Source of the DNA: Paramecium tetraurelia
Taxonomy: Eukaryota
Reading direction: 5' to 3'
NCBI GenBank assembly: GCA_000165425.1
Contig: CT868050.1
Coordinates: 62,001-126,000, forward strand
Length of the DNA: 64,000 nucleotides
This document shows positions 5,601-64,000 of the stretch, piece by piece. Position 1 is the stretch's first letter, and every line of letters begins with the position of its first letter. The notes under the pieces were generated by a model. It was not told the origin of the DNA, ran no database searches, and saw only the letters and a list, made by a program, of their open reading frames with translations. Made by a program: the position numbers and the translations under genes.

Positions 5601-6509
5601 AGCTCTTAATTTTATTTATTATACGTTAATAGAAACTTTATCAAATAGATTTATGAGACTTAAAATTATTTTGATATGATTTATATAGAGAATTCAGATG
5701 AAGAATATATAATATTGACTTAGAATAATTACATTGACATTACACATTATAATTTTTCTTAAGGTAATGTGGTTCAAATGCAAACCTACAATATAGAAAA
5801 AATAAAACTATTATTGATAGATCAAAATGAAAATAACTTTTTGATAAATCCAATGTTAGCATAAACACTTTAATTTAATCTTGTTGATGCTTTGAAAGTT
5901 AAATTCGAAATACGATTAAATGGCATCTTAGATTTTGAAAATATAAAATTTTATGTAACTGTTACTATTAATACATTGAATTAAAGTTTTGAAACAAAGA
6001 TAATAAGAACTTTTAGAAGTTTAGATTCTATAGAGAAGATAATATTTATTGACGAACGATTTGCTATATTTTAAGGTTAAGCTCAATTTCAATGTTATAT
6101 TTATGATTTAAGATAGGATTAAGAATTTTATGATCCGATAGTTAAAATGAATATGTAGCCTGCAATGATAATAAAAAGCTATAATAGTACACATTATATT
6201 TTCTTTGATTGTTTAAAGAATGAAGCATTTTTAATAGAAATTGGATATGAGATTAGTTTTTTTGAGAAAGAGAAACCTAAAAATTGTAAGTTAATAGCTG
6301 AAAATGAGATATCAAAGGCTGAAATTTAATTAATCATTTAATAAGAAGAGATTAATGACAACATTAATTACAAAAGTATTATAATAGTATCAATTATTAT
6401 ATGCATATTAATTGTTTTAATCATTTTTATATTAAGGAGATAATAATTAAAGAATCATAATCTAAAACAATTCTAGCAAATATCAATAGATGAATCAAAA
6501 CTATAATGA
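2662..6509 (+). CDS. Large type-I membrane (surface) protein of unknown function, one frameshift near 4680
   Basis: Signal peptide MFLEILLFFVILKNS; single C-terminal TM IIIVSIIICILIVLIIFIL followed by RRQQ; TGA at 6507-6509. The reading frame changes near 4680. Confidence 0.75.
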
Positions 6510-6582
6510 TTTTATATTAAAATTAAATAAATTTATTTAAATATTTAATAAGTTTTGTTTAAAGATTTTGGCGTGCCTATAG

Positions 6583-6732
6583 NNNNNNNNNNNNNNNNNN
6601 NNNNNNNNNNNNNNNNNNNNNNNNNNNNNNNNNNNNNNNNNNNNNNNNNNNNNNNNNNNNNNNNNNNNNNNNNNNNNNNNNNNNNNNNNNNNNNNNNNNN
6701 NNNNNNNNNNNNNNNNNNNNNNNNNNNNNNNN
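6583..6732. other. Assembly gap (150 N)
   Basis: Run of N. Confidence 1.
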
Positions 6733-8952: not shown

Positions 8953-9435
8953 TTTTTCTCTAGTGATAATAATTTGGGTATAATATTATTAATAAAATAA
9001 CTTGTTTTCATTTATTTATTTTACAACATTTTATACTTTTTATATCTATATATATTGGTTTTTTAGTAACTAAATGCTTATCTAAAATTGAAAAATATGA
9101 ATTAATTTAATTAATATTGTTTTATAAGTTCTTATCTTTACAAAATATAAAGAATATTTCTAATGAAGAAAATTTTAATCCAAACTCTTAATGCTTCTAC
9201 AAATTTTAAGGTCTTCTTTAAATTAAGAAAGAATCACTAGAAAACATCATGGAGATAAAGAAGTCCTTCATTAAAAGTGGAAAATAGCATTAATACATTT
9301 AGTATTCTAGATGAGTCCACAAAATTAAAAATAAATTATTGGTTCAAATATATTGATAAAATTAATTTTATGAGAAGTATTATCTAGCAAATTATTTTGT
9401 TTGTTCATTATATAATTAAATAAAATAATATAGTA

Positions 9436-25348: not shown

Positions 25349-28300
25349 TCAATTAAAATTCTATACATCCATTGATGGTTCTTGGAAGGTTTTGATTGAA
25401 ATAAAATGGCCTTCAGTTTTTCTATCAATAGATGGAATTTCAACAATGCAATGAGAAAAATACTGAAATTCTTCTGGATAGCATAATTCCAATGTTTTTT
25501 TTGTAGATTCTGAGACTTACACCTTTCCTCTTTCCCCCTTCGATTCCATTTTATTAGCTATCAACACGTCTGGCCCATAGATATCATATCTCACAATATC
25601 AGTTCCAAGAACTCCTCCGATGATTTTCCCAGTGTGTATACCTATCCTCATATCCAGATCTGAATTATTGATTTTGTCTCTGACCTTGCTGATGATGTTG
25701 ATCATTTCGAATCCCATTTCCACAGTGTTTTTAGCCTCCAAGGCTGGATTTCTGTCTTTGGCATCCACCATTCCCATGACCACATAACAGTCCCCAATGG
25801 TATATAACTTATACACATTCTTCTCCTGACAACACTTATCAAATTCAGTGAATAGATTCCGCAACATAAATACGACTTATTCAGGAGCCACTTTGCTTGA
25901 ATACTCTGTAAACCCAGCGATATCAGCAAACAGAAGAGTGACATCCTCATGTTGATCCTTCAAGACTGCTCTGGATTGTTGTAATTATAAAAATTGATCA
26001 AGCATGTGAGTTGGCAATTGATGTTTTACTAACTGATCTAATTGTTCATGCTTGTATTTGAGTTTGCATTTTTAGTTGTAAGCCTCAACATTCTTCAAGA
26101 ATTTATAGATTTGGTTTGATACAAATATTACTTGGAGTAGACTGGCGTAGTAAATTAGGGAATTATCCCAATTATTAGACACGACGGCTATGATATTCAT
26201 GCAAATCATGACAATGCTCTCAACAACCTTGTATTTCATTTTGATTATGGGGTTCAATTGAGTCAAGAAGGAGAGAAAGATCCCAATGGCAATACAGACT
26301 TCTCCTATTATCCCTTCTTTGACACTGAAGATGTGCATGATCCACCAGATTAAAATGAAGATGTAGAACCCTATAAAGTATTTCTGTTTGAAAAAGTGAT
26401 TGCAATATTGCTCATTGAACAATAAACAGATGAATATCAATTTAACAAAGACAATCATGTATCCCTACACAATATTAATGTACCAAACTGTAATCTCTCT
26501 GAAAATGTTGTCAATCAAAATAGTGGATGTATTTTAAATGAGGATTAGTATGCCCATTCCAAGTTCCAAGAGAATCACCAGTATTTTATTTTACTTCCTC
26601 AATTGCTGGTAAAACTCTTGGATGACCTCTTCATCGACTTCGGAATGAAAGTCAAGGTACAATCTCTTTTTGTCCAAAATCAACACATCCATCTCTTTGA
26701 ACTCGTCCTCAGCCTAATGAATCTGTTTTAACTTGTCCTTGTCTACTTCAACCAAAGGGAATTCCAGGGAATCTTCAAACATGAGATTCTCCCGAGCTAA
26801 TTTGATTTCGAGTGCTTCGATTAGGTTCTACCCTGTGATAGTGAGTGGTTGTTGCTCCTTTGTCGGAGGTTGCAATTGATCACTCTCGCCTCTAGAATGA
26901 TGCTGGGACACATTGTTATTGTTATTGCTATTATTCAAGGTAAGATTTTGATTGTCTAAGTTGATACTCGATTTATGCAGCAATTGGGGTGTCACTATCT
27001 TAAGGCTTGATTACACGATGGTGGGTTTGCGAGAGTTCTTGAATTCAAATATGGATTTTCGATGCTTGCCTGGATAATCATCTCTATTTAGGAATATCTG
27101 CATGTCATCTTTGAATTTCCTCAGCTTCTTCCTTGAAATCTTCTCCTTTATCACTTCCTACACCAAATAGGTGGCCAATTGACCCTTTCCTTTCGCCTCC
27201 ACTATATCCAAAGTAAAGGTGAAGTCAGGACAATTGGAGACCTGCTTGAATGCCTCCTCAGATATCTTGATTTGATTGTCCTATGCAGTGGAACAAACCC
27301 GACTGGTGGTATTGACAGTATCTCCAATCAAAGAAAACTAGGGTTTATGATACCCAATAACACCAGCAATCACATTGCCATAATGCACTCCAATCTTCAC
27401 GACAATGTTTTCAGTCTAACCAAAACTCTGGGACAAAGCAAACTTCTGCATCTCAAAGGCCACTTGGAGAGCTCTAAGAACTGGGTTAATGTTATTTTAA
27501 GATATTAGATTCTTCAACCCAGAAGCTGCCATGTATGTCTTGCCAACAGTTTCTATCTTCTGCAGGTTGTATTGATTGCACAAAGAATCATATTGTCTGA
27601 ATAGGATATCCAGCAAATGAACCACATTCTATTGTTGCACCTTGATTATTGTGTCAAATTGACAAATATCGCAAAATAGAATTGCTACCTCCCCTTGATT
27701 CTCCTAAATGTCAAACTCTCCTTTCTGATTGATCATGTTCCTGATGAACTTTGGCATCAGAATCGAGAGTGTGTCACTTATCGAATTGATTTTCTAATTC
27801 AATTGCAAATTCTGAATGAACTCCTGTCTCAGATTCCTTTGCACTCTCAAATGCATCCCGCTACTCAAGGCTGTCTACATAAATGCTATGAGATAATAAT
27901 TGAGCATGATGTATGTGTTTATGTTCTAATTGATGGACGTATTGTTGGCACTAAATCTGATGATGAAACTGATGTTGACTATGATGCAATAGAAGATTAT
28001 GGTCAAGGGCCTATCATCAATTAATGGTTGCAACATGAACAACTGCATAATGAGCATGTCACTCAAGGAGTTGTCATTCTGTTAGAAAAAATAGATATCA
28101 TACACGATCTTGTACAACAGACGAGAGAGAATCAAGATTTTTGACAATCTGAAATGGTACTTCTTAAACACTGATGTGTAGATGAACAGAGCCATCAATA
28201 ATTAAGTGCCGTTGTATCCATATGAAAAATCCAGTAGCCAAGTATAATTGCGGTCCTTGTTGACAAACCAAATTTGCAACAAGATTGCCCCCTCCACCAA

Positions 28301-31300
28301 CATCCAGCTCAATGGATAATAGAATCTGTAATATTCTAAAATTGATGTCAACTCATTCAATTGATATTTGGTTTCTAATTGAATATTCTTGAACTATTGA
28401 GTTAACTTATTGATTTTTATGCTCTTTTCACTCAAGGCCATTCCAGACAACATCGATCTTATCGAAGAATCCATTTCATCTTCATTCTTAAACAATTTCA
28501 AAGCATACTTCTAGATATTCAACAGAAGCGAGCTATTGTTCTTCTTTTTAGAATAGTATATCTCTATTGGCTTCAATAGACCGCAAATCTAAATCTTGTC
28601 CTTAACTGAAAACATCAACTTGTCTATCGTATAAGGAATGAATTAAAAAAGCAATTGCTAAAGTGTGTAAATTATTAGAATTATGAGTAAGATGTAGAAT
28701 ACACTTTGAATGTTGATTAGGTGTTCCAGAATTTGATAGTAAGTTTCATTGAATATTTGAATATAACTGACCAAGGTCAACAAATAGAGTACGATTAATA
28801 ATATCCACCAATAGACTATGCTGTCATAGATCCATTTACTTTGCTCAACCACAATGATTATTGAATACATTTACAAAGACTGAATAGAATTATCAAAATC
28901 TCTGCCATCATCTGTATAAAATTCTATGTACTTTTAAATTATTATTATAATGAAGGATTCAAATATGGAGAGCAATAATACTTTGTAAATGAACAACCAA
29001 TATTTGTGCTTTCTGAATTGAATCCAATTCTGATTATAAAAGTAAACTAATTGTTATTTAAAATCAGTGATGTTTCTATTATTCAGGATTGACTACTTGT
29101 ATAGCAACAACGAAGGCAATATAAACATGATAGATTAGTAATATGAGAGAGGAGGAACTTCATTATACACTTCCATGATACGCTGGAAAAATAGGCAAAA
29201 CATTATCAAATAGCATCTATAAAATGCATATATCATTAAATTCTCGAGAAATTCTGCATGCTTTCTACTGTCATAAAATAATAATGTTATTAGATTATTC
29301 ATATCCTTAATAATGAGATCTGCTGTGCTCATATGTCTCACTTTAGAATAGATAAATTTATCTAATTATCTATTAGAGTAGAGTTATTGCAAATGCTTGT
29401 ATTTTGATAATTTGTTGGAAACCTGTGCATTATTATTTATGTTACTCTCCTTTTTTACTCTCTCAATTTACTCCATTTTTTCTATTTTTATTTTTTAACT
29501 CGCTCTCTCATTCTGAATTTATATTGCGAAATCTGAATTTTCCATGATAATCGAATCGTTAGCCTCGTCTCCTACAACCAATATCCTTCTCCTTTACAAT
29601 TGCTTTTTCTGTAGAATCTTAATCAAAACACCTTTCTAATACTTATTCATTGAATAACCAATAAGGTGAGTACAGAATGAGACTAGAAATGCCAAATGAT
29701 GATACAAGTTTTCATCATTTTCAATAGTCTCCAGAGCCTTCCCTTCAATCATAATACAAAACGGTTTGGTTTTGGATAAGTTATTATTCATGCCTATTAA
29801 AACACCTCTTGTGCTGGCTCTTCTAGCCACATTTATTGATTTTCTCTTGTTATTAGGACTACTGAGTAATTTTTCATTATTCTTTTTATCATTTTGCTCT
29901 TCCCTTAACTGTTTAATCAGATTATTATAGCACCAAAGAATATGTGACTTAATCTGCTAAGAGATCATGTCGTTTGATTCTATTTTTAAGATTTGAATAT
30001 TTTCTTTCAAAATGCTTGATTTATAGGCTATGGGCAATACTTTATTTTTTGTATCACCGCTGGCAATCCATATAGATATATCTGCATTCTGATAATAGTT
30101 GATGATATCCTTCAATTATTTCTTCAATTTTTCTTACACTCCAACAATTAACACAACTTCCAATTGATTTTACTTATTTTTAATCTCTTCTAATGGATTC
30201 TTTACAAATAAATTATAACTGTTTTAGTCCATGTTGTATTTATAATAGATTATTGGCCTACAACCTCTCTGTATAATTTTGTTGATTATTCCATTCCAAA
30301 CATCCTTGTCCTCCTTGTCCATGTTTATCCCCTCGATCAATTCCAAACCATCCTCTCTGATGTATTAAATGTATTCAAATTTATCATTGAATTGAAACGC
30401 TAACAATTTGTTATAATCAGTAATCTAAGTGATCACAGACAATTTGTTATTATCTAATTAAGTGACTGTCACTGGAATTTCTACTAGATTCTCTTTAATC
30501 TCAATAATGTACTTGTTTTTCCCAAAGGTGGATCCAATAAATTTATAATCATAATTCTAAGCTAAATTAATTTGTAGTTCATCTATCTGATTGTTAAATT
30601 CTTATTATAATGAATCCTGCTTCTTCAGATATTTGGTCTAAGTGTTATGGCAAATGATGAGGATAAACAATGATTCCTCAATGACCCCTCTATATTCTGG
30701 TGTCAATGATTTACTAAAGATTTCCTTCTCATTACTAATAAAGTCATCTTGTCTATCATATTGAATGTTGAATTCATCGGTCTTGTAGAATCGATCAGCC
30801 GATAACTTCTTTTTTGGTTCCATTTTCTCTAATATTGGTCTTCTCTCGCTGAACTTACGTCTGGCTGTCTCCTTGATTGGAGATTAAGACTTGATCATCC
30901 TTTATTCATTGAGCTGATTGATCATGCCTCCTAAATCAGTGCCGGATTCCCAAGAATCTATTTGAAACAGTTTTGGAGGTTTGGTTCTATGGATCTCTTT
31001 CAATTTGGAATGATCGTCTGCAATCTCTTCAGCATTGAAGTTGGCTTCTTCCTATTAACTTGTCTCACGTATATCTTACTCAAAATTGGGTTCAATGTTC
31101 ACCAAGTTGTCCTCCAATCTCCAAGGCGTGACTGAGGCTCTTTTAGCAGGACTCATGGGTCGATGATGGGGTGACACCTTGATGGATGAGATCTAATTAG
31201 GAGACAAGGATTAATCCTGAATGAAGAGCATCTCCTAATTATCTAACACCTCCTTCTGATACTTCTTCCATTCGGTTGTATTCTTAAATGTTTTGTTATG

Positions 31301-32790
31301 AATTTCGTAGAATGTCTCATTTATCAAAATTAATTTAATTTTAAATTGCGGTATGGTCATCGTACAAGTCTTGTCAAAAATGACAGAATCCACCAAAGAC
31401 AAATCAGCTATAGGAGTTGCATTCAATTTGCTGTACACTGTATTTAAGTCCATCTTGTGATTCACGAATATATTGAATTCCTACTGACTCTCACTATTCT
31501 GTCCTCCCTTCTGCTTATTGAATTTGAACAGTTTCTAACTTGAACTCAGAATTTACAGTAGATCCAACAATCCTATCAAATAATAAGGCAACATATTCAA
31601 GTAAATCAGAAAGTGATCAGCTAAATATTGTATCTTCCACCCTTAATCAACCAATCTGATTGATTCAATCATCCAAGACACAAACGATAACAAAATTATG
31701 AGGATTAATGTGAATTTGTAGAAGGTGTCAATCTTGTTTTCAAAGAAAGACTTAGTTGACTTCTCAAACTTGCTCAAATGATAATATTTACAATTCAAAC
31801 CACAACTCAACACAAGTCCATACACATAATCACAAGTCTGCAATTGTTGTCCTCTATACAGGATATTCTCCCTCTTGATATCAACAGCCTGAGGGTCATT
31901 CTTCAATCGAATAAACCCTGTGTAGAAGCACTCAGATTTGTAATCCTTGTCGAAGGTCACCTTCCCACTCAGCAATAATCGATATTCAAAGCCATTTCCC
32001 TTGAATTAATGCATCTTGGGCAAGGATGTTAATTCGTTAGCACTCTTTATTCCCTCCTCGGTCTCCCCATTCACACACGTGTTATTCACGTAACATCTCT
32101 CCTGGTTTGACTCCAATATCAGACAATCCGAGGGACAAATCTCATTCCTTTGTAATATTATGATGTCTCCAATCTCCAAGTCTTCCCATCTTATTGTCTC
32201 TATGATGCTCACTTTTGTGCTCTCGTTCAATTCGGTCAAAGGCTGGGGGGACGGTGGTATCATCCCCTTGTCTGCTCTTTGAGTTGATATCATTTGGGTC
32301 TTATTTAATTTTTGCTCATATTCCATTAAACCGATTTTCTTGTTATGCAATATTTTCTTCAGTTTCTTAAACACAATCACCCGTCTTTTGTTTATTAAAT
32401 TGTCCTCGCCATTCACCAATTTCATATAATAAAATGTTTTTATCAAATACATCACTATACCAAATAGAAATGGAATGACAAATCCGTAGATAACTTGTGA
32501 ATTGTCTTGAGTTATGCTCAGACATATAATGTTAATCATCAGAAAAATGTAATTGAACGGCCTCCTCAAATATCTCCATATAATACTCCCCAATGATTAT
32601 ATAGTGGAAATTTTATTTTTTAATTCTGAAGAAGAGAAGCCCTTTAAATTTACTGTGTCTCCATTTTCAAATTCTATCTTGTTTATTAAAATGTACGATA
32701 TACTTGCTTAGAATATGAATCATCATTCTTTTATTTTGTTTTTGTGTATTTTCTATGCAGGTATTCATAAATTAACTATGATAATTTCAT
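25349..32790 (-). CDS. Alveolate-type guanylyl cyclase with N-terminal P4-ATPase-like domain (~2,470 aa)
   Basis: ATG at 32790 and a 26-nt intron (32678-32703); the remaining length is a multiple of 3. ATPase half: WEDLEIGDII, CPSDCLIL, VNGET, FDKTCTMT, IASGDT, VGDEAND. Cyclase 1: QKIETVGKTYMAASG...KPQFSLIGDTVNTTSR. Cyclase 2: LFADIAGFT...KLYTIGDCY...RYDIYGPDVLIANKMES. Confidence 0.96.
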
Positions 32791-47597: not shown

Positions 47598-49286
47598 ATG
47601 TCTGAGGAACAACAGTAATATTGGCCCATTTTCACGGAGTAGGATGAAACCAAAACATTCTGGAATAAGAAACCCTCCAATTTGGACAAATAGGCTATTA
47701 TCTATCAGCAGCCTATGTAGAGAATTAGTTGGAAAAGTAACAAGCCTACTGAATATGAATTTTTATTGAGTGAGGAAGGCGTGCTGTTTTATAAACAAAG
47801 TAATAAGATCAAGGGATATGTGTAATTAAACGAAGACATCAGTCTGAAATTGATTGATCTCAAGATCTCAAGCAAGAAAACAGAGGCTGTTAAGGTCATT
47901 AGGATTAAGAGAACTAAGGACATCTTTCTATACATATGGAATAAGGATTAGTACTTTATAGCCCCATTCTTAATTTTAGTTCGTATACTTTTCAGTTTCT
48001 GAAACATTTATGTTAATTCTGTTTTGTTCAAAATTTGGATCAGTTGTACACTATGCAAGATGTGATAGGAAAAGGCGGATTCTCCAAAGTGTATACTCTA
48101 ACTCCCAATATCCGACTACCTAACCAGCCCTTCAATTATGCAGGCAAGGTCTATAATAAAAACGAATTGTTATCTAAAAAGGACCTTAAAAAGTTTTATC
48201 ACTTTATTCGAAACGAGTGTTATGTGCTAAAAAGAATCAATTTCCCTTACGTACTCAAATTATGCGAAATTATACAAATGGAGGAACTCCTAAGTATTAA
48301 TGTAATGTATACCAATTTAGTCTTAGTAACTGAATATATCAAAGGAGGATCCCTGTATCAATACTTGAAAGAGAGAAAGCAACTGACAGAAATGGAATCT
48401 ATCCAGATCTTGCAGAAACTGGCATTAGGCTTGCAATAAGTTCACAAGTATTAGACCCTTTTTCTATTCTTTAAGTCTGGGGTATGTTCATCGAGACATT
48501 AAGTTGGAGAATGTGCTTATCGATAAAGATTAGTTGAAATTGATAGATTTTGGATTTGCAGAGAAAATATGCAGAGACAGACTGGTCAACGGTCAAGGAA
48601 CAGCTGGTTACATTGCACCCGAAGTGTTTATGAAGTAACCATACCAAGAAGTAGGTGACATCTTTAGTTTAGGAGTGATATTCTATTCATTGTTATCTGG
48701 TAAGGCTCCATTTAGATCAAATACTTATGATGCCTTACTTAAATTGAACAAGGAATGTCAAATCGATTTTTCAGAATAAAGATTCCAGAATGTCAGCCAA
48801 AAAACTATGCATCTGTTAAAAGCTATGTTATAAAAACAACCAGAAAACAGAATCAATGTTTAAGATCTCTTAAATCAACTCACTGCTAATTAGATCTTCT
48901 CTCCTTCTCATAACATTCCTTCAACGTAATCAATTGTAGAGGGCTCTGTTGGCATAAGCTTTAATCATTTGCAATCAAAAAACACTCTAAAATCCTTTTA
49001 TCAACATAGTCAAAATTCATTTATTGACAACAGTAGTTAATGTTCTTAAAAAAAACCATCAAAAAACCTTAGGGATAGACGATATAAGAGTCAGAGCATG
49101 GATAAAAAGGGTATGCTTTTGAAATCATCCTCTTTCAAACCATCGCTTAAGAGCATTTATCAAATTAAAATTGAGCAGTCCGATGATAACATTTCAATAG
49201 CAGATTATGAGTTACCAATACCAGAGGTTAGTCTTCAATTTCTCTAAACTTCTTATCAAACACTAAATCGCTAAAAGTTTATTTGA
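47598..49286 (+). CDS. Ser/Thr protein kinase, CAMK-group-like, with possible N-terminal PH-like region
   Basis: IGKGGFSKV, YAGK, HRDIKLENVL, IDFGFA, GTAGYIAPE, DIFSLG. Short introns; TGA at 49284-49286. Confidence 0.93.
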
Positions 49287-49312
49287 TTTTTATAACAATA
49301 TGTATTTATATA

Positions 49313-51397
49313 TCATAAATAATAGTATTCTCCATTGAATTCCATATTTTTGAATTTATTCTTGACATCCCCCAAGTTGTATTCTTTGAATGAATCCAAG
49401 ACGTTTTCAAATTTGCGATCCCCTAAAAATATTGATTATATTTACTTTTGGTTAATAAATACAAAATGAGCCTCAAGATGTCCAATATATTGGGGTTCTC
49501 CTTAATAATCTTCAAACTATAAACTTCCTTGATCAATTTAATGGTCAATTAATAATCATCCAACTGACTATCCTCTTTCCCTTTGTCTTAAAAATAAAAC
49601 AAATCAAAAATATTGCTCAGGTTGATGCAATTCCTTACAATAAAGAAACTACTGATTTCGGTGTTGTAAAATACAAAGCTCAAAATTTACGATAAATACA
49701 AAACGTTACTGTAATACTCGTCTCTTCTCATTTTGCTCATACAACAGATTTATTTGAAATTGTAACCTAAAGATGTTTTTTATTCTTTGTCATAAGCAGT
49801 GGCTAAAATGAGTTCCAGCATCTTTTTGGAATGAATAACGGCAGGTTTAACATTCAATTAAGTACATAATATTGCCATTGATTGAGTCATTCTCTAAACT
49901 GTGGGATGAAATAATTTAATATAGTAAATGAACAGTCCACTTACAGTTTATTAATATATAGTTTTGCATATTAATTCAAAATCTTATAAAGACTCGTAGT
50001 ATTACAGTTCAATTTAATCTTCAAAAATGTAGGCTTGGTAGTAATTGGACAAGTCAAACATATCAATAAAAAATTTGGACAATTGGATTTAATTAGTTTC
50101 TAAATTTTTAAAAAGTTCTTTTTTATGAAATTTCTTTAACAACTTTCTGGCAGATTTAAATGTTATAAGAGAACTCGAGTAATTGTCCTTCCTCTGGAAT
50201 TCTTGTATGAATTTGACCACAGAATCAGTTGCCTTTTCCAAAATTACATCATTAATTTTAACAGTCTACGATAACGTCTAAGAGTTCATCAATATCCTCT
50301 TGATTTATGTCTCCTCCTCTATGTACTTCTCATCAATCTTATACTCCAAATATTGGTTCAATTGCACTCTCTACAATTTATGGAATATTTTTGGATGATC
50401 ACACTTGATTTCATGTAGAATGTCAATCAATACAAAGTCCACTTACAATTAATCATACGGCACCAGTTGATTGCAGATTGGGCATTTCCATCTATTCTCA
50501 TTCGGCTTTTCATTCATTGTCAAATAGGCATTCAATTCAAAACAATCAAAATGTAAGCACTATTTCCCTCGAACTGGAATCTCCAGTTACTACATCGTAA
50601 TTCCATCAATTAATTTTACTGAAAACAATGAATCCTAAAGAGTGTCATCAACCACTAATACTTATATGAATTGCATTACATGACAATGATTTAATCTTAT
50701 CTTGATATTATTACTTTTATTAAGTAATAATGGAGTCTATTATTTTCTCTCTCCCCACATCTATTAGTTTACTCTTTAATTCAGATATTTTAATACTTTT
50801 AACTATTACTATACCAAGTAGAGAATTGCTTTCTACATCTTCTCCAACTTTCACTTTTATTGTATTTGCTCCCCATTAGATACAAGTGGATGGTCTAAAA
50901 TTATAATATTTTTAATTAGATAAACATAAATCCATAATCGTTTATATGATATGCTATGTGATGTTGGTTGTTCAATTCAACATACACATTTTTGCTTGGC
51001 CACTCATACAATTTTTTTGGTTCTTTTGTTTTAGTACAAAATATTGCAAGGATTATCGATTTCTTCTTAAGTTCTTCATAATACTAATTCACTTCAAATG
51101 TGAACACCTTCTCTAGTAATTAGGCAGGTTTCTTAATTATAGCAACATTAAATTTATTGTTTAGCTTAATAAATGTCTAATATTCTTAGTGAAAATTTAC
51201 TTCGAATTGCATCTAGGGATTATTCGCAGTTAATGAGCATTGGAGGCATCGAAGTTACGATGGTTATTTATCTGTTATTTGATAATCATAGCACTGCCAA
51301 TGATGATTCTTATGACAAACGTAACAGATAAAACTATCTAAGATGTTATTTTATTCACAATAGCATTATTTTTACATTTAATTAATATTTTACCCAT
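49313..51397 (-). CDS. SP-RING (MIZ) zinc-finger protein, SIZ/PIAS-like SUMO E3 ligase
   Basis: IPVRGKQCLHFDCFELNAYL...RWKCPICNQ. N-terminal CYC...CYVCHKNHHWQC...RCLQC is PHD-like. Confidence 0.87.
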
Positions 51398-51963: not shown

Positions 51964-54900
51964 TCAATTCATTACAATTCTTTGATTCTTAAATAGGGAT
52001 AATAAATCTATTCCTGTTTTAGATATGATTGTACTATTTTCAACAACTGTGTCCTATGATTCAAATTTTAATAATTCTGACATTGAAAATTTCATAGAAT
52101 AAATTGAATTCTATTTCTAATAATATCGAATAGATTTATCATCACTATAAGTAACGTAACAATTGAATTTTAAACTTACTGCAGCTCCATTGACTTGCTC
52201 ATCATGCTCATTTTATATAATCATCGATTTATCTTCTTCATCATAAAAGATAACCTATTTATCTTTTAAATTGGTGGTAATCAACAGTGTCTTTTCATTT
52301 AAATAATTGAGACTATTAATGGAGAAGTCTTTAAAATCTTTTTCATAGATAATTTCAAATGATTGTGCTGAGATCACTTTAATTAATTCTTTAAAAACTA
52401 CAACCAACTTGGATTTATCAGGAGACTAACTTAAACAAATAATGTTTGGTTGATTCAAATCCAAGAAGTCTTTTGTTTTCTCCCCTTTATAATTCCAAAA
52501 CCCAAGTTTGCCATCTTTATCTCCTGAATATATTGTGTTGTTCTCATCCACTAAAAATGTGGTGGGAAAATGATTATTTGACTCTTAGGCGTATGAATAC
52601 TTCAGCTTTTTCTGCAAGATAGGGACATAAAACAATTGATCATCCTTAGACCAAATGATTCTTCTCTAATTGAATAAGACCAATATGGATTGATTGTCAT
52701 TTAGATTGACAATTTTCTCAGATAAAATTAAGTCATCTGATATCCACATGCTTAAACCTTCGAAAGTATGTAAAACAAAATAGTTTTGATCATTAGAAAG
52801 ATAGAAGGAGTTAATGGTTGATCCAGTGTCAATGACTTTGATTGGTTTATCATCCTTCCATTGTTTTAATATCCCATCAAGTCCAGCTGTGATAAACATA
52901 TTTTGGTTATTAATCCAAGCAATTTTAGTAATACGTCCATTGTGAATTTCAGGTATCACTTAATATTAATCTTATTTTTAAAGGTCAATGATAAGCAGAT
53001 TTCCATTTTGAGTGCCTGCGTATATCATGTTACTATTCTTCATGCAAATAGAATGTATATGGTCTTTCTTCTTTTCCTTAATTACCTTTATTGTCGACTT
53101 CTAACTAATATTCCAAATTCTAATAGTTTGGTCGATCGAGATATAGAGGTTATCGTTCCAAACAAAAAAGTCATTAATTTTAGTAAATTTACTTTGGTAA
53201 TTAGAATATTGAGTAAAATCACTAAATTTCCAAAATATTATTGAATTTTATCCTGAAGTCATAAACAACTTATTGTTCAATACATAAATGATATCACATT
53301 TGCTTTTTTTGTGAGCCTAATTTTTGAATATGAGTTCCTTATTTTCTATGACTAAAAGATATCCCTCACTCGTACCAATTAACTTCTATAACCCATTATT
53401 GCTTATGGCTAAAGCAGTTATATATTGATTTTAGATTTTTAAGTAATTGCTTATGTTATACGATTCGATAACATTCACTTATTGATCCCTGCACTAATCT
53501 AATAATTTTTTAGTCTCAATATTTGGAATTATTCTTTTATTTTCATCTTTGTAATCGTATATTAGTATAAACTCTTATAAGTTATTAAGACTCCATAAAT
53601 GTATTAATTTTTCTTCAGTCATTGTAACTATATTGTATTATTCCTCTGAATAAAACACAGATACCTTGGAGATTTGAGAAGCAAAATGATTTATCTCACT
53701 CCTTATCTAAAAGGTTAGCAAGTCCCAAATATATAAGTATCCATCTTCTCCTCCTGAACATAACAAATTAGAATCTTGAGAGATGGCTAAACTTCTTATC
53801 GGCAATTAATGCTTTTCAAGATTCTGACCAATCTGCTGCCCAGTTTATGTGTTCCAAATCTTGATTAACAAATCACTAGATCCAGATATCAATAAAGTTC
53901 CATCAAATGAAAATATGCAACATTAAACAGAGTTGATATGACCTTATGGATTACTAATTTAGGTGTCTTAACTATCTAAGTCCCAAATTTAGATTTATCC
54001 TTGGTTTTATCCTGTTACTGCTAAATAAGTATTAGTGATTAATGTTAATGAGAATATTTTAATAAATGCTGTAAAATTAGCTTAATTTATTTATGATAAT
54101 TGCTAAGTACTCCATAAAATAATTGATTAGTCAAAAGAACAAGAAACTAGAATTTTGCCATCATTCGAAAACTGTAATTCAGCGACTGCTTTCTTATGTC
54201 CACTTAGACTAACAGGTTTCTCAATTTATGACAAATTATAGAGATATATTTCTCCCTTTCGACCACCAATTGCTAAAAGATTCAATTCTAAATTACTATC
54301 CATACAAATTACTCTTTCACACTTTGTTTCAATTTATTTCATCAATTATGCTTGCTAACTGTATAAATGTATAGTTTTTGATAATCTTTACATAATTATA
54401 ATTTTACAGCATCGAAGATTCACAATTTATTCGTTGATTAGTTATTTAAATGAATCTATGGTAACAATCAAATCCTTTTATTACTAGATGATTTCAACTT
54501 TATCTTCAACCTCTTATTTTTAGTTTTATTATTTTCCTTTTTTCTTGTCTTTGTCTGTTGTTTTCTTTTATGCTTTTCTTTCAACATATTCAATATTTAA
54601 TTTGAGTTCATGTGCACCATTGTATCCTCCAAAAATCAAAGATTTATCATCAAATCCAAATACACAACTTGTTCTCTCTTTATCAAAACATTATCCATAT
54701 TGTATTAATTGAACTATTTTCATATCAAACAAATCATATAATAAAATCTCGTTTTCATTTAATAAAGCCATTAGTCTTTGATTATTTGCCAGAATAGCTT
54801 ATTTGGGTATAATTTTGATATTTAATTTATTTACTTCTTGAATTTTATAAATGTCATACTATTTCATTTCAGGTTTTTAATCATCAAAAGCAAGCAGAAG

Positions 54901-57900
54901 CCTTTCTTTTTCAATATAAGTTAATCCTTTGATGTTTCCCAAACTCGTAGATATTTTTGGTAACTAATTCAATGAGATATCAGTCCATTAAGCATTAACA
55001 ATCTTGGATAAATTTAAATTAACAGATGATAGAGTTATACCTTTTAAATTTGAATTTGTGAAATCGCAATTAAAAAAGTTGGCTCCACTCAATGATACAT
55101 CTGTTATTTTAATATTACTGAAATCCATATCAATAAAGGAATGATCCATTTCATTTAACAATAGCATACTATTAGAACCGGCTATAACAAAATTATCATC
55201 AGTTCTTGTTAGATAAATGAAATTTAAAAGCTATTACTTTTATTCATCATTATACTTTAATTTATCACAAATAAATGTTATAGAACCTTTCAAAAATTCA
55301 AATTCCCAAATTGTCTTAAAAAATTCATATTAAAATAGTTACTTTTTTGTATTTTCATCTATAGGAAATTTTATATTGGATAAATATTCAACAAACCATT
55401 TAGCTACTAAAAATTCTTAAATTGATTTATGATTAAATGAATAAATGCTGTTTTTCTACTTAATAGGCATACATTTTCTAAATAATCTTTTGTAAACTCC
55501 TTCCTAACATTAATCATCAAAGAATTCATCTTTCCAATCAGATTCTAATTTCTTAAAGATAAGCCCACTAGGTTAAAAATAAACTTAGGTCATATTTCTA
55601 AATGTCATCTGATTAGCCAAATGATGAGTGAATTTCCATAACTCACTACCAATTTATTCATAATCTATAGGTTCACCTGCTTCTCTTAATTTATAAATTT
55701 ATCTCTTAAAATAATGTTCCAGAAATTAACTATAGAAATCATATGTAGATAATGGTTCTAACATTAATGAGTTCTTAATGATAGTAAATTTTTAATTGGA
55801 AGTAAAATATTTAGTAATTAATTTATCTACTTAAATTTCTGAAAACTCCAGTAGATATTCGCTCAAAAAATTTGAATTATGAATAATTGTTTACCATTCA
55901 TCTAATGCTTATTTCTCAAGTTGATTAAATTATAGCAATTAATACTCACTTTTTGCGAAGTAAATATATTTTTTAATGAATCTATTTTTTACATTGTTAA
56001 TTTCTGACCTTTACCTAACAATATAAGGGAGAACAGCCATGACAATCTCAGCCATAAAAGGAGTTTCTATTACTTTGTCTAATTTCATAATTTGGATGAA
56101 TTTTAAATATTAAGCACTCGACCATATTTCTGCAAGTAATTAGGATAAGGACTTTTGCATTTCCTTTGAAACAAAATTAGAACATTTAAATAAAATTTAC
56201 TATATTACATTTGGATTAAGCATAAATGTATTTTCAAATTTCATCTTACCTAAGTTCAATGATTTAACTAGGTCAGTGAAAAATGTCTCATATTCAGAGT
56301 AATCTTAAGTGCCATAATTACTAAAGTAAAATTCTCTAATATCCCTTTTAACACACAATAATGTGTATTGATCAATATACAATTTTTATTGTTCTTAATT
56401 AAATTTTAATAATTTGACTTCTTTGTAAAATTAAGGAGAATTTGATTCTGATAAAAACCATGTATTATAGCCAGCTATATTAAATATTTCTGTTCTACAG
56501 GTGGTGATAATTTTAGGAAACTTGTTTTTGTCAGCTTAACATCTCCATTTTGAGAGTTTATTTGATACATTTAGGTTTAGTCCTATGTAATCTGACTTTA
56601 GTTCATCATAACTATCCATTATTATTACCAATTTTATTTTACGTTATTCAACAGCTTCTTAAAATTCTTAGATTTATCTTTCATTAAATCTATAATTATC
56701 AGATTTTAAAGTTTCTTCAATACAACAATACACAGGGTCTCTTAATTAAGGCAATTATACAAAGATAGGAATTAATGGTATATAATCACTCTATTTTTTA
56801 TTCTTTTGATAAAACATCCATAGGAATTCCTCTATTTTTCTAGCCGCTGTACTCTTACCCGATCCAGCTTAACCATGAATCAAAAAACTATCCTTAGATT
56901 GCTTCCAAATAAATTCATTTATCTCTCCATCTCCAAAAATGTCCTCTGTGAAGAGATTTGTCTTTTCAGAAGAGTATTATGAATCATTCAATTTTTCTTT
57001 CGATTTTATAGGTATATAAACATTGTCGGAATTGAATACTAATCTTTATTATAACATTTTTTTCATTCTCAATTCTAATAATTCATAGAATGTTCTCCCC
57101 TTCAAATATTTTATGTCCTTGCTTATTTAATCTAATGTTTCTTGCATCTAAATAATAAAATTTTCGATTCTTAATAGGTCCTATTTTAGATCCTACAGAA
57201 AGATGATTGTAATTCCGAGTGAGTTTTATATTTAAGCAACATTATCAAACATTTACTAGATATCTTTCTCTAACTTAGTATACTCCTTTCGTAATTGCTA
57301 TTTAAAATTTTCCTAGGTTTCAATCGATATTTATTGGGCTAACTCATTTAAATCTTTTAATTTCTCCTTTAGCTAATTTTAGATAATGGTTTCTTGACTC
57401 GGCCAATATTTGCCCATCAATTGATTGGATAATTGAATGGATTTATCATCAAATAGTGATCTAATTCTCTTATCAGTCTCATAAACTTAAAATCTTATAT
57501 ATAATCCAGAATTCAATGACATACAATTTTATTGAAGACAACTTCTTCTCATCTATATCAATTCATAAACCAAAAATTGTCTAATCCTCCATTAGTTATT
57601 TGACAATAAATCATTAATTCCCTGTTAAATTAAATCAAAATAATCATTTGATTTTTTCGACTCATCTTTATTTTCTATCTGACTCAAAATAAAATAGATT
57701 TGTGGCTCTAGATCCGAAGGGTACTAATTAAATTCTTTCAATGAAATAATCTACTAAACTTATTAATAGTCAATGGCAATCTCTATAGTCAAATTACAAT
57801 ATTCACTCATTGATTCCTGTAATAATTTTTCAGATTCCTGAAACTACAAATAAAATTGAGGTTTCTTTGTAGCTAATTTTTACAGGGTAATCACATTTAA

Positions 57901-60651
57901 AATTTGAGATTACACTTTCTCAGAATTAGTAAATATATTTTAGAATTATTGCACTTATTCTTGCTATCTGGTTTTAATTTATTTCATTTCATCTACTAAT
58001 TGTTCATAAAATTTGATTTCCTCATTCCAATCAAATTGTTTTTATTCAATCTTAACTGATGTACTCTTTATTAATCTGCAACAATCGCTTAATTACTTTT
58101 GTATATCCTCACAAAGATAAAATGCAATTTCTTTATCCTTTTCATTAGTTATTTTCATCAATTTTACAATATCAATCAATTCTATAATGTTTGAAATTGC
58201 AGCTCTCTTATTTTCTAAATATTAATAAAACTCATGATCTTCGGTTTTGATGTAATCTTTCATAATTTCAAAGGATTTTAAGAATTCATCCTGATAAGCT
58301 GAAAGTTTTTAAAAGCTCAATACAATCTAGGATTATAATAAGGAGTTCGTGTTGAAATTGGGAAAAATTTCATGAAAGATAGATTAATCTCTTAAGATAA
58401 TTAGATCATCTTTTTGTTCCTGATTGTTATCTAATTAATTTTTGAGAATATCTGTTATCATTTTGAATCCGCTACAGATTTAATTTAAATAGTTGATGTT
58501 ATCAGTCAATTCTTCTTATACAATTTTACAGATTTCTTAGTCAATACTTACATCATTCTTCAATTTGGTTTCTTTGAATAAATGTGTTGTTAAAATTCCT
58601 ATTATTTAATTGATTGTTATAAATTTTTCAATTGTTATTGCTTTTAGAATCTTAACAAATTTATGGGATTGATCAGTAGGTATTTTGGATAAGATCTTGC
58701 TACTCTAACATTTTAGGAATTGGTTGTACATAAATTACAATGAAGATTATAGAGGATCGTAAGAAATCATTTACATCGAAAGTTGAATGATTTCTTATTT
58801 TAAATTTAATTACTTTTCGTCTTCTTTAAAAGAATTGGTCATTCTTAATTTAATTGATAAAATCACTTGAATCTGTAAATTCCAATTTATGAAGCATTTG
58901 GATTTCTAAGTTAGATCAAAAGCTTTAAAAAATCCATAAAACCATTTATTCTCATTGGTAGTATTTTTCGTTGTTTCTTATTGCTTCTTCATTTTTAGTG
59001 AAACAATCAAGTTTTCAATTTAAACTTGATTAATAGTTTTTTTAAGAATTTCCTCCCTTAATTCAATGCTTATTTCTTCTGAAGTAAATTGATCTAATAG
59101 TGATTGTATGGCATTCTCTTAAAATATTGAATCGAAATCAATATGTTAAAACTGTTTACTTGATAATTGACAATTCAAGTATTTTTGTAGAAACATTACT
59201 TAAATTTTGTCAGTTTCTGGAAATTCATAAATGAACTCATTCTAATTGATTTCCCCCTAGATAGATTATTAGATGATAGCCAAATATTCCAAATCTCTCT
59301 TAAGTTGAATAGTTTTAGAAATCAAATCTTTCATTAGGTCTTCAGCTTCTTTGATTTTTTGTTGATCATTATTAATCACAAGCTATTTAAATAGTTCAAC
59401 CAATTATTATTAACCCTATTAAATTGCGCTAACTGAATTCATAAACTGAGAGATCTAAGAAGAACTAAATGAATTATTTTTTAAAGTTGAATTAGTTGCT
59501 TTGATAACAGATAATTTGTTAAAATAGTATTGTTCATAACTTTATAGTAATCCATATCCATTTAATATGTAATATTATAGTCGAGATAATTCTTGCAGTG
59601 GCTGACTATTTTCAAAAATTAATTTCAATAATTCGTCATTTTGAATGTAAAAATTATTGATTGCCACATAATTTCTACCATCAAAATTAGGGATTGTATA
59701 TTCTTTTCCTTAAAAATATTACTAGAGCTGATTTTGAATTCTCAATTCATCAACTGCTTATCTCAATTAAAAGAGTTAAGATAACACCTAAATCCAACTG
59801 CACCAAATTTCCCAATCAGTAGATTCTCGAATAATTTCGCAATACATTTTGCTAAGAACAGTTGCCAAATACTTTGCATCCCTTCCATTATCCAATTCAT
59901 CAATAATATAAAACTTTAATTATTGAAGAGCAAAAATCACTTCCAATTTGCGCTTTCTACTATACTTAACTCCCTCTTAATAGATATAGATAACACTCTT
60001 CTTAAGACTTTGAATTAGATCATCATTTAAAGTAAATGTGCTTACTGATTTAAGAGCACCACTTAAAAACTATACTAAGATTTCTTAACTCTCTTTTGAA
60101 TTAGTCGGTTAAATAGTTATAATGGATTTTGAAATAAAAAATTCGAAATAGAGATTGTTGAATAGTTTATCAGCGTTTCTTTCAATTTTTAATTACTCTC
60201 TTATCAAGCCCATTTCCCTTAGCATAAATTACTGCCTGTCAATGTCCAAATATCTCTCTTAATTTGTGGAATAGTACATAAACAGAATCCAAGACAATTA
60301 GGTCATAATTTATAATACATATAATGAATATCCCACATGTTATTAAATTACTTTTTATAATGCTGACATTAGTGTATCTAAACTTTATGATACAAGTTCA
60401 AAGGATTATTGATTTAATTGAACATTACTAATCAAATTCCATATTTATCTCTAATTTAATTGGAAGAATTGAAAACTATTCATTAGGTTATTTTCCTAAT
60501 CTAAAACTGTCACCATAGATCTTCCAATACGATCACAATGAAACTTAATTTAAGTTGTCAATCCTGGGCTATTTTTTAAGGTTTGTGTTTTAATGGGGAA
60601 AGGTGTAACTATGTGAGTTGATCCACAACCTCCTCCTCTTAAATTCATCAT
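51964..60651 (-). CDS. NACHT-type STAND NTPase with pentapeptide and WD40 repeats (NLR-like, ~2,895 aa)
   Basis: Length 8,688 nt is a multiple of 3. Walker A LIHGQAGSGKST (~56850-56885); Walker B IIMDSYDE; KIITTCR; TPFMAEIV; pentapeptide SLSGANFFNCDFTNSNLKGI (~55000-55130); WD40 repeats GHKKAVAELQFSNDGKILVSCSFDQSIILW and GHINSVQCCIFSFDGTLLISGSSDLLIKIWN. Confidence 0.93.
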
Positions 60652-61332: not shown

Positions 61333-64000
61333 TCAATAAAATTATATAACTCCTTCTTTGAGTATAGAATTAGTAGAGTTGGAGTGATCCAAAGTAGTTT
61401 TAGTACCGCATTTCTTTAATATATCAAATATTTATCTGGCTGGTTTTCCCAATTGTTAATAGAAATCTATAAATAAACAAGCCAATAGGATGGTTGAGAA
61501 TCCTGCAATTTCCACCCATCCTAATAAGGATACATATTCTATTTGGGAGAATAATAGGAGTGATTCTGAAACTGAAAATAGGATAGCTATGGCTGATATC
61601 AAACATTCGGTGATAATAATTTTGTAGTTTTCAAATTGGTTTGCAAATGGTCGCATTCTATAGACATAGACTGAATAAAAGCCTGAAATCAAAGAGGTTA
61701 ATATTGGTTGAACAGGGGGAAGTGTTTGCAATAGGACTAAATTGGCAATGAAAAAGGTCTTTTTAATCAAGACTAGTGTGGTGAATTGCCTATTCCAATA
61801 GTTTCCTTTGATTTCAAGTCCTTCAAAGAAAATGGAGAATCGTCTCGATAAATTCTTTACTGTACTCAAGTAGGAGTACAATTGGAACATGAGAGCAAAA
61901 TTGAAAATGAGTACGATAAGTGCAAGAAGTGAGCTAGTTTCAGTGATGGAGTCATACGTTTAGAAATTCGCCACTTGCAGAAGAGCGGAGAACATTAAAT
62001 CGTAGAAGTTGGATAGGTATATTCTGACGAGTCCTGAGTAAAAGAAGTATTAGTAATAGGATTTGCAGATTTTTTGAATGAAATGCATAGCTTTGATTAT
62101 TTTGGTGATTGTTTCGACGTATCTTTGATCGAATACGATGGGCCAATTGTAATATTTGAGTGAAGTAAGTAGCAGTTATAAGAAGTAAACGATAACGTAA
62201 TTGGTGAATCCAAGAACTAGGATAATGATGAAGGATTCCAGATTGATTCCAAAGTAGCAATTGATAGAGAACACTTCAAATCTTCCAAAGGCAGGTATGA
62301 AGGGAGAATTGTATTGAAACATTTCTTCGATGAATCCACTCAATTTAATTCTATCAGTTATTGGTTAAATAGTAACAAGGGAGAAAACTTCAAAGTAAAT
62401 AGATAAATTTTAAGGAAATTTCAGATTCAAATATTTCATATAAGATAATTGTTATAAGGTATCTATAAGATTCCAAAAGATTTCTAGATTACCACTTATG
62501 AAAGCAACACAAGCAACAGTAATCAAAGTATAGATTACAATTTCATTGAATAATGCAGCATTGGCAGCCACCATCTTTTGAGTTGAGGATAATGTAAATG
62601 GATCCTTCAAGATGATAGTTTATTAATTAGATGCTAATTGATTCTCATATTGATTAACTAGTTGATCGCAATAGATCTTGACTATTAATATGGGTCCGAC
62701 AACAGATTTGTAGAAATTGAGTTTAATCTTGTAGGAGACAGGTTGCAAAGTATAATCAATGCTCAGGATGGGAATTATTTCATAAGTGTAATCTGAATCT
62801 TAGAGATTGGAGATGGAAATTTGAATGAGTTGCATAAATATCTCTTCAGTGATGGAAGTCGAATTCAATCTGACATCTTCACTGAAAGTAAGAATGATTT
62901 CTTAGCTCTATCCATAACTATTGAGAGGAGTGGTCAATTTGATGGTTGGACTGATATTGTAAATGCAAACACTCAAGGAGTCCACAAAATAGCACTTCCA
63001 GAATTTTTCAATTTCGCAATTAGAATTGCATCCATCATTATTATCAGTGTTGGCATCTTCACATTGTTCATAAGAAGAGGCAAAGATACCATCACCGCAT
63101 TTATTTTAACAATATGATTAATTTTCATACAATCCATTAGGACATTAGATGCATTCTCCTTGGAAACACTTCAGGCAATGAGAATCACATGAATATTCGC
63201 AGTTATAACAGCCATCAAATTCTACGAGATTACCATCATCACAATATTCTTTGCCTACTATAATACCATCTCCACAAATGGATTTACATTGTCCATCAGC
63301 CAGTTTCCATCCATAGGAATCGCAGACTTAGCATAATTTACCCTCACACTATAAACACCCTAATGAACACTAGATCTAACACTTATAGCATCCATCATAA
63401 GGAAGATAATTGCCATCATCACATACTTCATCCGAATTAGTGATGATTCCATCTCCGCAAAACCCTTCACACACATCAGTAAAACAAATTTGTAACTAAT
63501 CATCCCAAAAGCATCCCTAATTATACTTATCACTCTAACAAGCCTCCTTAATTGAAAAATATTAACACTCAGTTATCTCTACACATCCTCCCCCCCTCTT
63601 AGTAGTACAAGATGATAAGTACTCTTAACATTGTTAATGAGTTGTTAAGTTAGTTGTAGCTGTGTTGCATGTTTTCGTAACACAATCATTTATTATCCAC
63701 ACACACTCTTTGAAAAACTTATCAAATGTACACCCATCCTTAATCAATACTTCTTCACAAGTACTTCTCCTGATACATTGATAACCATTTGTAGTACAAC
63801 TTTTGTCTGGAAATATAGAAGCACAAGCAGAATCAATTGCATAATAGTAATCAGTGCAAATTCTTAATCTGCATCCACCTTTTTAACAATTCTACATATA
63901 TCCCTCGCATTCCTTATTAGACAAAGCAAATTTAGGGCCATTCTCACATGTCTTCTCTACACACTATACTCTCTCGGTATTCCAAAAACATTCAGTACCA
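61333..64000 (-). CDS. Cys-rich surface protein with C-terminal multi-TM domain (5' end outside window)
   Basis: Surface-antigen-like Cys repeats (63480-64000); three CGDG...E.C(D/E)D.N....DGC repeats (~63000-63470); then FWNLIDTLQQLSYMKYLNLKFPQNL and several TM helices with RPF...FEN; TGA at 61333-61335. Confidence 0.88.

Follow-up and report, generated by a model that had tools for sequence, protein, structure and literature searches.

In a 64,000-nucleotide stretch of the Paramecium tetraurelia genome (contig CT868050.1, positions 62,001 to 126,000; hereafter the window), a giant minus-strand gene for a NACHT-WD40 protein begins with the residues M-M-N-L-R-G-G-G-C-G-S-T, and we found that the core of this N-terminal block is retained across a family of ciliate relatives. 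As judged from comparison of these sequences, there is good support for a masked acylation signal following an L-x-G-G site, and the best explanation for it, in which we place moderate confidence, is a masked dual-lipidation signal that would be unmasked by an LxGG-type endopeptidase. In the proposed mechanism, the leader M-(M)-N is followed by L-R-G-G as the putative P4-P1 pattern cut by ubiquitin-tail/LxGG-type cysteine endopeptidases, and a cut after the second Gly would generate a new N-terminus, G-C-G-S-T. The exposed Gly (Gly8) would then be the myristate acceptor in a post-translational reaction carried out by N-myristoyltransferase (NMT), with Thr12 at NMT position 6, and the adjacent Cys (Cys9) would be the palmitate acceptor, S-palmitoylated by a palmitoyl transferase. 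Lipidated in this way, the flexible tail would tether the helical N-domain and the NACHT-WD40 machinery to a membrane, for which the cell cortex is a plausible location, and the cut could be either a constitutive maturation or a regulated licensing step. The gene and the parts of its N-terminus are as follows:

51964..60651, minus strand: whole gene, NACHT-WD40 STAND protein of 2895 amino acids, stop included in the coordinates (open reading frame, Pfam)
60643..60651, minus strand: leader M-M-N (ATG ATG AAT), with translation annotated from the second ATG, 60646-60648 (translation, public protein P0008, orthologs)
60631..60642, minus strand: L-R-G-G (TTA AGA GGA GGA), ubiquitin-tail-like, proposed P4-P1 of the cleavage site (conservation)
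60616..60630, minus strand: G-C-G-S-T (GGT TGT GGA TCA ACT), putative embedded acylation signal (conservation)

The reverse complement of 60616-60651 reads ATG ATG AAT TTA AGA GGA GGA GGT TGT GGA TCA ACT, and this, together with the translation of the open reading frame, confirmed the N-terminus M-M-N-L-R-G-G-G-C-G-S-T given in the original prediction, a short note made from the DNA letters. The frame (60651..51964, minus strand; N-terminus MMNLRGGGCGST) was uninterrupted over 2895 amino acids under the ciliate code, in which TAA and TAG are read as Gln, and contained 191 such reassigned codons; the window is AT-rich (GC fraction 0.19-0.37). No in-frame ATG was present upstream of 60651 in the 228 codons back to the nearest TGA. 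At the NACHT-WD40 locus, the public protein P0008 (2894 amino acids) equals this frame minus its first Met, so that in the annotation translation begins at the second ATG (MNLRGG...). In each of the six group-A orthologs there was a single Met at the start, which aligned with that second ATG, and on this comparison the leader in the window protein may be M-N rather than M-M-N. LRGG occurred only once in the entire 2895-residue protein and was absent elsewhere in each Paramecium family protein checked.

The evidence that carries the proposal comes from conservation of the motif. A word-indexed search with residues 1-400 recovered six full-length NACHT proteins of ~2900 residues (P. aurelia complex; 43-91% identity there), all of which began M-x(1-3)-LRGGGCG[S/N][S/T], as did the members of their 90% clusters. 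A phmmer search with residues 1-420 against 1.84 billion representatives returned 24 matches, and all 10 that were looked up came from Paramecium; LRGGGC was kept in every match that reached the N-terminus, at 23-36% identity. Among the 38 proteins collected before the profile search, 24 had LRGGGC, and 13 of the other 14 were fragments in which the match began inside the domain. The remaining one, P0022 (Paramecium, 387 amino acids), carried a decayed motif, H-F-A-G-G-G-C-V-L-V, and was the sole member reaching the motif position in such a form; it is a short, odd gene model and may be a pseudogene. The profile search then exposed six further Paramecium NACHT proteins, all six with the motif, namely five proteins of 4200 residues with leaders of 53-58 residues, and one from P. 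bursaria with the N-terminus MNLQHHKQSQLFT-LRGG-GCGLCK.

We compared 28 distinct N-terminal contexts from Paramecium, including some from proteins that share as little as 17-24% identity with the window protein. None of them lacked L, R, G, G, G, or C (28/28 for each), and the Gly after the Cys was kept in 25/28. When eight paralogs (24-80% identity to the window protein) were aligned over their full length, L4-R5-G6-G7-G8-C9-G10 were the sole invariant columns in the first 40 residues, forming a run comparable to the Walker A block, and the motif was included in independent gene models from six Paramecium species. The leaders before LRGG had lengths of 2, 4, 5, 7, 11, 13, 21, and 50-90 residues and were unrelated in sequence (for example MSKIF, MSQMESI, MAKLIQKTKFL, MLALVNTITSS, and one of 21 residues), variation that fits a removable pro-piece which is discarded. 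From these alignments, we conclude that the LRGGGC motif is not a product of chance.

The Paramecium profile search also matched Tetrahymena NACHT/WD40 giants that had L-[R/L]-G-G-G and then Cys, and a search seeded with one Tetrahymena protein gathered 46 proteins from T. thermophila, T. malaccensis, and T. utriculariae. A motif of the type [L/I]-x-G-G-G-(x)-C-x-S-K was present in 34 of these 46, behind leaders of 4 to ~560 residues, with DK-LLGG-GICGSKSK, NK-ILGG-GICGSKQK, and MGER-LLGG-GCGASKQQ as typical forms; in P0099 of T. thermophila the leader is MGHR, with LLGG after it. The original prediction had named conservation in paralogs and orthologs as a check on its proposal, and the check was passed, with LRGGGC in 28/28 Paramecium contexts and the L-x-G-G form in 34/46 Tetrahymena relatives. 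Counts by position were taken from 26 distinct three-Gly contexts in Tetrahymena, eight four-Gly contexts being excluded as ambiguous in register, though the same register is possible for them:

P5: K/R in 22/26
P4: L or I in 26/26
P3 (the Arg position in Paramecium): L in 22/26
P2, P1, and P1′: G-G-G in 26/26
P2′ or P3′: Cys in 24/26 (at P3′ in 19/26)
P5′: Ser in 25/26
P6′: K/R in 19/26

A hidden Markov model built from the Paramecium N-domain was tested on 17 additional hits and matched three Paramecium proteins only and none from Tetrahymena; thus, the motif is common to both genera while the adjoining domain differs. In addition, 11 of 25 long Tetrahymena leaders shared an element, S-[L/I]-[S/T]-Q-[I/V]-Q-R-x-N-L-x-N-L-I, located 39-195 residues before L-x-G-G (P0047, P0049, P0051, P0062, P0064, P0067, P0069, P0072, P0076, P0079, and P0084), which argues that the long leaders are coding sequence and that the pro-region itself is constrained. 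A metagenome scan yielded eight loci, three of which extended far enough upstream for the motif to be judged, and one of these, from an environmental ciliate relative (L006:1690-1760), encoded K-K-R-D-L-R-L-L-G-G-G-V-C-A-S-K. Here L-L-G-G-G was specified by TTA TTA GGG GGG GGA, versus TTA AGA GGA GGA GGT in the window gene, so that conservation is at the amino-acid and not the nucleotide level. In the same locus, L-L-G-G is preceded at a distance of six codons by an in-frame TGA, and the +1 frame has an ATG right in front of an A8 run; a frameshift or an indel from assembly could account for this, or the start could lie elsewhere.

P0048 (Tetrahymena malaccensis) had L-R-G-G-G-Q-C-S-C-K 1216 residues into the model, with protein kinase families in its precomputed Pfam list, and its twin P0047 had the identical site at residue 520; P0048 is either a gene-fusion artifact or a protein with a very long pro-region. 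P0052, a 2492-residue NACHT protein matching the family profile, started with M-G-G-C-V-G-T, an unmasked acylation-type start, and may be useful for comparison with the masked form.

The residues after the proposed cut were analyzed by numbering the Gly that follows hydrophobic-x-G-G as position 2 (P1′). In the NMT consensus, position 3 is small or uncharged, Ser or Thr is preferred at position 6, and a basic residue is favored at position 7. Counting from Gly8 and its counterparts, these downstream preferences were observed across the family: Ser/Thr was at position 6 (P5′) in 24/28 Paramecium and 25/26 Tetrahymena contexts, as opposed to at most 15/28 and 7/26 at other positions, Lys/Arg was at position 7 (P6′) in 13/28 and 19/26, respectively, and Asp/Glu was found nowhere at positions 3-7 in either set. 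All 28 Paramecium contexts had Cys at position 3 (P2′), and 24/26 from Tetrahymena had it at position 3 or 4, that is, within a few residues of the putative acceptor Gly, as in dual-acylated (SH4-like) proteins. In the window protein, with Gly8 as position 2, the corresponding residues are C3, G4, S5, and T6. The register given in the original prediction, in which a cut after LRGG leaves G-C-x-x-S/T, is therefore the one that the family keeps.

The free N-terminal Gly that NMT requires is absent from the window protein as translated. Residue 2 is Met or Asn and Gly first occurs at residues 6 to 8, in agreement with the earlier claim that there is no Gly2 without cleavage, and co-translational myristoylation is excluded for the protein as translated because residue 2 is not Gly. 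No family protein as translated had Gly at residue 2 in a usable context, and hence the acylation signal appears to be masked. On the other side of the proposed cut, L-R-G-G, the sequence that precedes the cut in precursors of ubiquitin and ubiquitin-like proteins, was in place in 28/28 Paramecium contexts, while Tetrahymena had hydrophobic-x-G-G only. An M-G-C start would lead to constitutive acylation and is a one-step change away; the retention of both leader and L-x-G-G across dozens of paralogs and two genera suggests that the proteolytic step itself matters.

The remainder of the protein has the layout of a STAND/NLR-type molecule, in which a NACHT domain with Walker A is followed by a repeat sensor domain, based on its Pfam families (the best 25 of 34 rows for the whole protein). 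The P-loop columns, GQAGSGKST, were invariant in the eight-paralog alignment. An 'immune-like' label would be based solely on this NACHT-WD40 architecture, and no paper on ciliate NACHT proteins was found, by title or abstract, among the literature matches listed. An AlphaFold2 model of residues 1-420, built with a 21-row family alignment (mean predicted local distance difference test score (pLDDT) 79; predicted template modeling score 0.74), placed the motif in a predicted flexible tail, where it would be both accessible to a protease and suited to the role of a lipid tether. The domain that follows was modeled as helices only; Foldseek returned no match for it in the PDB at E <= 0.001, and VIA-align wide gave a flat list of generic HEAT/ARM-type solenoids only (best Z 9.4, WapL). 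We take this predicted domain to be a generic helical repeat and not a named family. The domains are arranged as follows:

60580..60651, minus strand: N-terminal tail, residues 1-24, predicted disordered and carrying the motif (AlphaFold2 pLDDT <50)
59752..60561, minus strand: predicted all-helical, solenoid-like N-terminal domain, residues ~31-300, without a Pfam family (pLDDT ~90)
56545..56883, minus strand: NACHT NTPase domain, residues 1257-1369, Walker A GQAGSGKST (PF05729, 33.5 bits versus a cut-off of 26.7)
52858..54753, minus strand: WD40 beta-propeller region, residues ~1967-2598 (many WD40/propeller Pfam families, E down to 3.6e-55)

Several observations weigh against a cleaved and lipidated N-terminus. 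The cleavage, the acylation, the transferases that would act, and the membrane destination are all steps that we infer from sequence, and the family sequences are related by descent, such that the counts above are of non-independent events. Typical deubiquitinases grip the ubiquitin fold, and no such fold lies ahead of LRGG in the window protein, where the leader is 2-3 residues and the beta-grasp domain expected upstream of a ubiquitin-like di-Gly is replaced by a predicted disordered stretch (residues 1-24, AlphaFold2). The protease-gated membrane switch put forward in the original prediction stands in part: the embedded signal is in NMT register and conserved, but a canonical deubiquitinase is doubtful, given that there is no upstream ubiquitin fold. 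Further, no Pfam family, and hence no protease domain, was above cut-off in residues 1-1250 of the window protein or in two Tetrahymena leaders (381 and 564 residues). A papain-like domain in cis was likewise not seen in the model of residues 1-420, which was all-helical with solenoid-type matches only. As no protease domain was found in cis and the motif-flanking domains differ between the two genera, a trans-acting enzyme is favored, and the protease would most likely be one of the host.

Exceptions to the pattern also count against the proposal. At P5′, Phe was present in P0021 and P0038, Asn in P0043, and Cys in P0045. The motif was missing from 12 of the 46 Tetrahymena relatives; eight of these look N-terminally truncated, since fewer than 250 residues precede the shared domain, versus at least 400 in ten motif-bearing proteins checked, while the other four have 408-824 residues upstream of that domain. 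Two of the three judgeable metagenome loci (L005 and L007) were without the motif. Finally, data on the transcript start consisted of one depth-4 contig, from a run only guessed to be RNA, which covers 60000-60623 and ends inside codon 10, and the three raw oligo-dT RNA runs labelled as the same species had 0 reads at the locus. The end of the depth-4 contig at 60623 says nothing about where the transcript starts.

Post-translational myristoylation following proteolysis is established, in excerpts of the literature, for caspase substrates and for the bacterial effectors AvrPphB, ORF4, and NopT. As described in passages of PMC2708883, self-cleavage of these three effectors exposes embedded myristoylation and palmitoylation sites, and the processed proteins have a G-X-X-X-S consensus with Gly at P1′ and Ser at P5′. 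The same passages describe features like those found here, namely a conserved N-terminal patch that hides the signal, P1′ Gly, P5′ Ser, and a nearby Cys, with lipidation driving membrane targeting of the effectors; unlike the window protein, they are papain-like proteases from bacteria and cleave their own chain beside a G-D-K motif (PMC2708883). The window protein instead combines an L-x-G-G site with a eukaryotic NACHT-WD40 carrier in which no protease domain was found (Pfam, residues 1-1250). For human cells, passages of PMC4200515 report that 12/12 mapped post-translational myristoylation sites follow a protease (Asp) site, and that in caspase-dependent myristoylation (BID and others) NMT can act on an internal Gly only once an endoprotease has exposed it, as we propose for Gly8. 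The caspase system differs in being Asp-specific, apoptotic, and found in unrelated proteins, whereas here the site is ubiquitin-tail-like and a family-wide N-terminal feature.

The ubiquitin tail is given as 73-LRGG-76 in a passage of PMC11568203. In ubiquitin and NEDD8 precursors and in ubiquitin fusions, as proposed for the window protein, L-R-G-G stands directly ahead of the scissile bond, but there the ubiquitin fold lies upstream, whereas here there are a leader of 2-3 residues, two Tetrahymena leaders without a Pfam family, and, in Tetrahymena, mostly [L/I]-L-G-G. Gly is tolerated at P1′ in the NEDD8 precursor, and adenain-type proteases have (L/I)-x-G-G specificity. Viral papain-like proteases, in the published excerpts on them, have an LXGG consensus that acts as a short linear motif and for which the ubiquitin body is not needed. 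Because these two kinds of enzyme read it, specificity for a bare (L/I)-x-G-G is feasible; their known substrates, in contrast to the proteins analyzed here, are viral polyproteins.

Likenesses were also apparent to acylated and protease-sensing members of the NLR class. Plant NLRs (RPS5 and others) are anchored to the plasma membrane by an N-terminal myristate and palmitate that are added co-translationally at a direct M-G start; they resemble the proposed form in being lipid-held and differ in that no proteolytic unmasking is needed. NLRP1 and CARD8 are NLR-type sensors in which the N-terminal region is a protease substrate, with activation proceeding via FIIND autoproteolysis and N-degron degradation. 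A protease-cut N-terminal region is the aspect that the window protein is proposed to share, whereas no lipid anchor takes part in their activation.

The alternative that survives best is that no cleavage occurs, such that the protein is Met-initiated, with (M)MNLRGGGCGSTHIVTPFPIK as its N-terminal peptide, and the block is an internal or near-terminal motif for S-palmitoylation or protein binding, with the Cys displayed on a flexible run of Gly. Conservation of that Cys (28/28 in Paramecium and 24/26, at P2′/P3′, in Tetrahymena), the predicted disorder of the tail, and the results of the Pfam searches for a protease domain in residues 1-1250 and the two Tetrahymena leaders are all in keeping with this, and S-acylation is described as having no strict consensus and no need of an N-terminal Gly (passages of PMC4972946). 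Nevertheless, it leaves unexplained why a hydrophobic residue is placed exactly four before the third Gly, why three Gly are obligatory, why Ser/Thr is at +4 and Lys/Arg at +5 in both genera, and why anything from 2 to ~560 residues is tolerated ahead of the block. We regard an uncleaved N-terminus as unlikely, though a serious competitor.

An improbable variant, itself a special case of the cleavage model, is that L-x-G-G serves as a tripwire or bait imitating the tail of ubiquitin/NEDD8; instead of a host enzyme, a deubiquitinase-like or papain-like LxGG protease from a symbiont, parasite, or virus would cut it, unmask the anchor, and activate the NLR-like protein. The NLR-like architecture is suited to such a role, L-R-G-G in Paramecium and the basic P5 in Tetrahymena (K/R in 22/26) echo ubiquitin R-L-R-G-G, and a site that copies a host target which cannot change could itself be kept without variation; moreover, viral papain-like proteases that both cut LXGG and deubiquitinate exist, according to published excerpts. 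However, identical motifs in dozens of paralogs and in both genera are no less compatible with housekeeping maturation, and nothing within the window connects the gene to a symbiont or virus. Bait sites of known tripwire NLRs evolve fast, which we counted against this variant.

A cut at a different bond, either after Arg by a metacaspase-like enzyme (LR|GGGC) or before Cys by self-processing of the Ntn-hydrolase, hedgehog, or intein type (GGG|C), appeared very improbable. Arg at P3 and the Cys after the Gly run are indeed invariant in Paramecium (28/28 each), but Tetrahymena has Leu at the Arg position in 22/26 and Cys at P3′ in 19/26, so that neither bond is conserved in the family, and we rejected both the metacaspase cut and G|C self-cleavage for this reason. 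The residues after Cys, furthermore, are hypervariable and predicted to be disordered, unlike a Hint or Ntn fold, and the Ser/Lys register would be left unexplained.

Equally slight, in our estimation, is the likelihood of a gene-model artifact, with translation starting downstream (Met46 is the next one) or a normal M-G start arising from a splice that escaped notice. The sole RNA-like contig does end at 60623, 28 nucleotides inside the frame, and the TGA of L006 falls six codons before L-L-G-G. Against this, the seven-residue invariant block is kept in proteins down to 24% identity, and L006 uses other codons for its Gly residues. Residues 13-45 also show 61-94% conservation among orthologs, no ATG abuts the Gly codons, and the motif recurs in the independent gene models of six Paramecium species; judged on sequence, an artifact is unlikely. 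By reasoning, an amyloid-signaling motif of the fungal NWD2 type is also unlikely, the block being too short and Gly/Cys-based, and a bacterial lipobox or double-glycine export leader was rejected for a giant cytosolic-type protein with no signal peptide.

For the preferred explanation, cleavage after L-x-G-G followed by dual lipidation, the new elements are the ubiquitin-tail-like putative cut site, its occurrence throughout a family of NLR-like proteins, and its retention in two ciliate genera. By title and abstract, nothing relevant on proteolysis at an LRGG site coupled to myristoylation was found in the literature searched. Among the matches listed for Paramecium NACHT, Tetrahymena NACHT/WD40/NLR, and ciliate myristoylation or palmitoylation, none described the motif, and none concerned acylation of ciliate NLRs. 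If the cut is real, N-myristoylation of a whole ciliate receptor-like family would be gated by proteolysis at a ubiquitin-tail-like site, adding a trigger for post-translational lipidation beyond caspases and self-cleaving bacterial effectors, and pointing to an LxGG endopeptidase that works without the ubiquitin fold. It would also offer a handle on the role of the very large, uncharacterized NACHT-WD40 families of Paramecium and Tetrahymena. The mature tryptic peptide would be myristoyl-GCGSTHIVTPFPIK, and Tetrahymena thermophila and Paramecium tetraurelia are both genetically tractable.

A broader form of this proposal, about which we are decidedly doubtful, would be a protease-licensed lipid switch on the whole ciliate NLR-like STAND family. 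A dedicated (L/I)-x-G-G endopeptidase that reads the bare linear site, whether a host enzyme or a pathogen deubiquitinase or papain-like protease trapped by mimicry, would remove a pro-leader of 2 to >500 residues, after which NMT and a palmitoyl transferase would fix the receptor to the cortex, where it would signal or kill. If true, this would constitute a new NLR-type activation logic, and a new class of trigger for post-translational myristoylation, that predates the divergence of Paramecium and Tetrahymena.

Other genes in the window were also annotated. Next to the NACHT-WD40 gene on its upstream side (61333-63897, minus strand), the product is rich in Cys, has Paramecium surface-antigen repeats as well as DUF4215 repeats, and is hydrophobic in its C-terminal half; a K-R-G-G-G-C sequence near 63594 was considered as a related motif and judged coincidental, being located inside a Cys-rich surface-antigen repeat. 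Immediately downstream of the NACHT-WD40 gene (49135-50838, minus strand) is a gene with a MIZ/SP-RING zinc finger, a SUMO-ligase-type domain. An open reading frame of 2396 amino acids (25349-32539, minus strand) combines two catalytic domains of the adenylate/guanylate cyclase type with a P-type-ATPase-like region at the N-terminus, and a plus-strand gene (9097-11511) encodes a Myb-domain protein whose very long tail is rich in Gln, Pro, and Met. At 6421-8952 (minus strand), the translation contains a run of X that corresponds to a stretch of N in the window.

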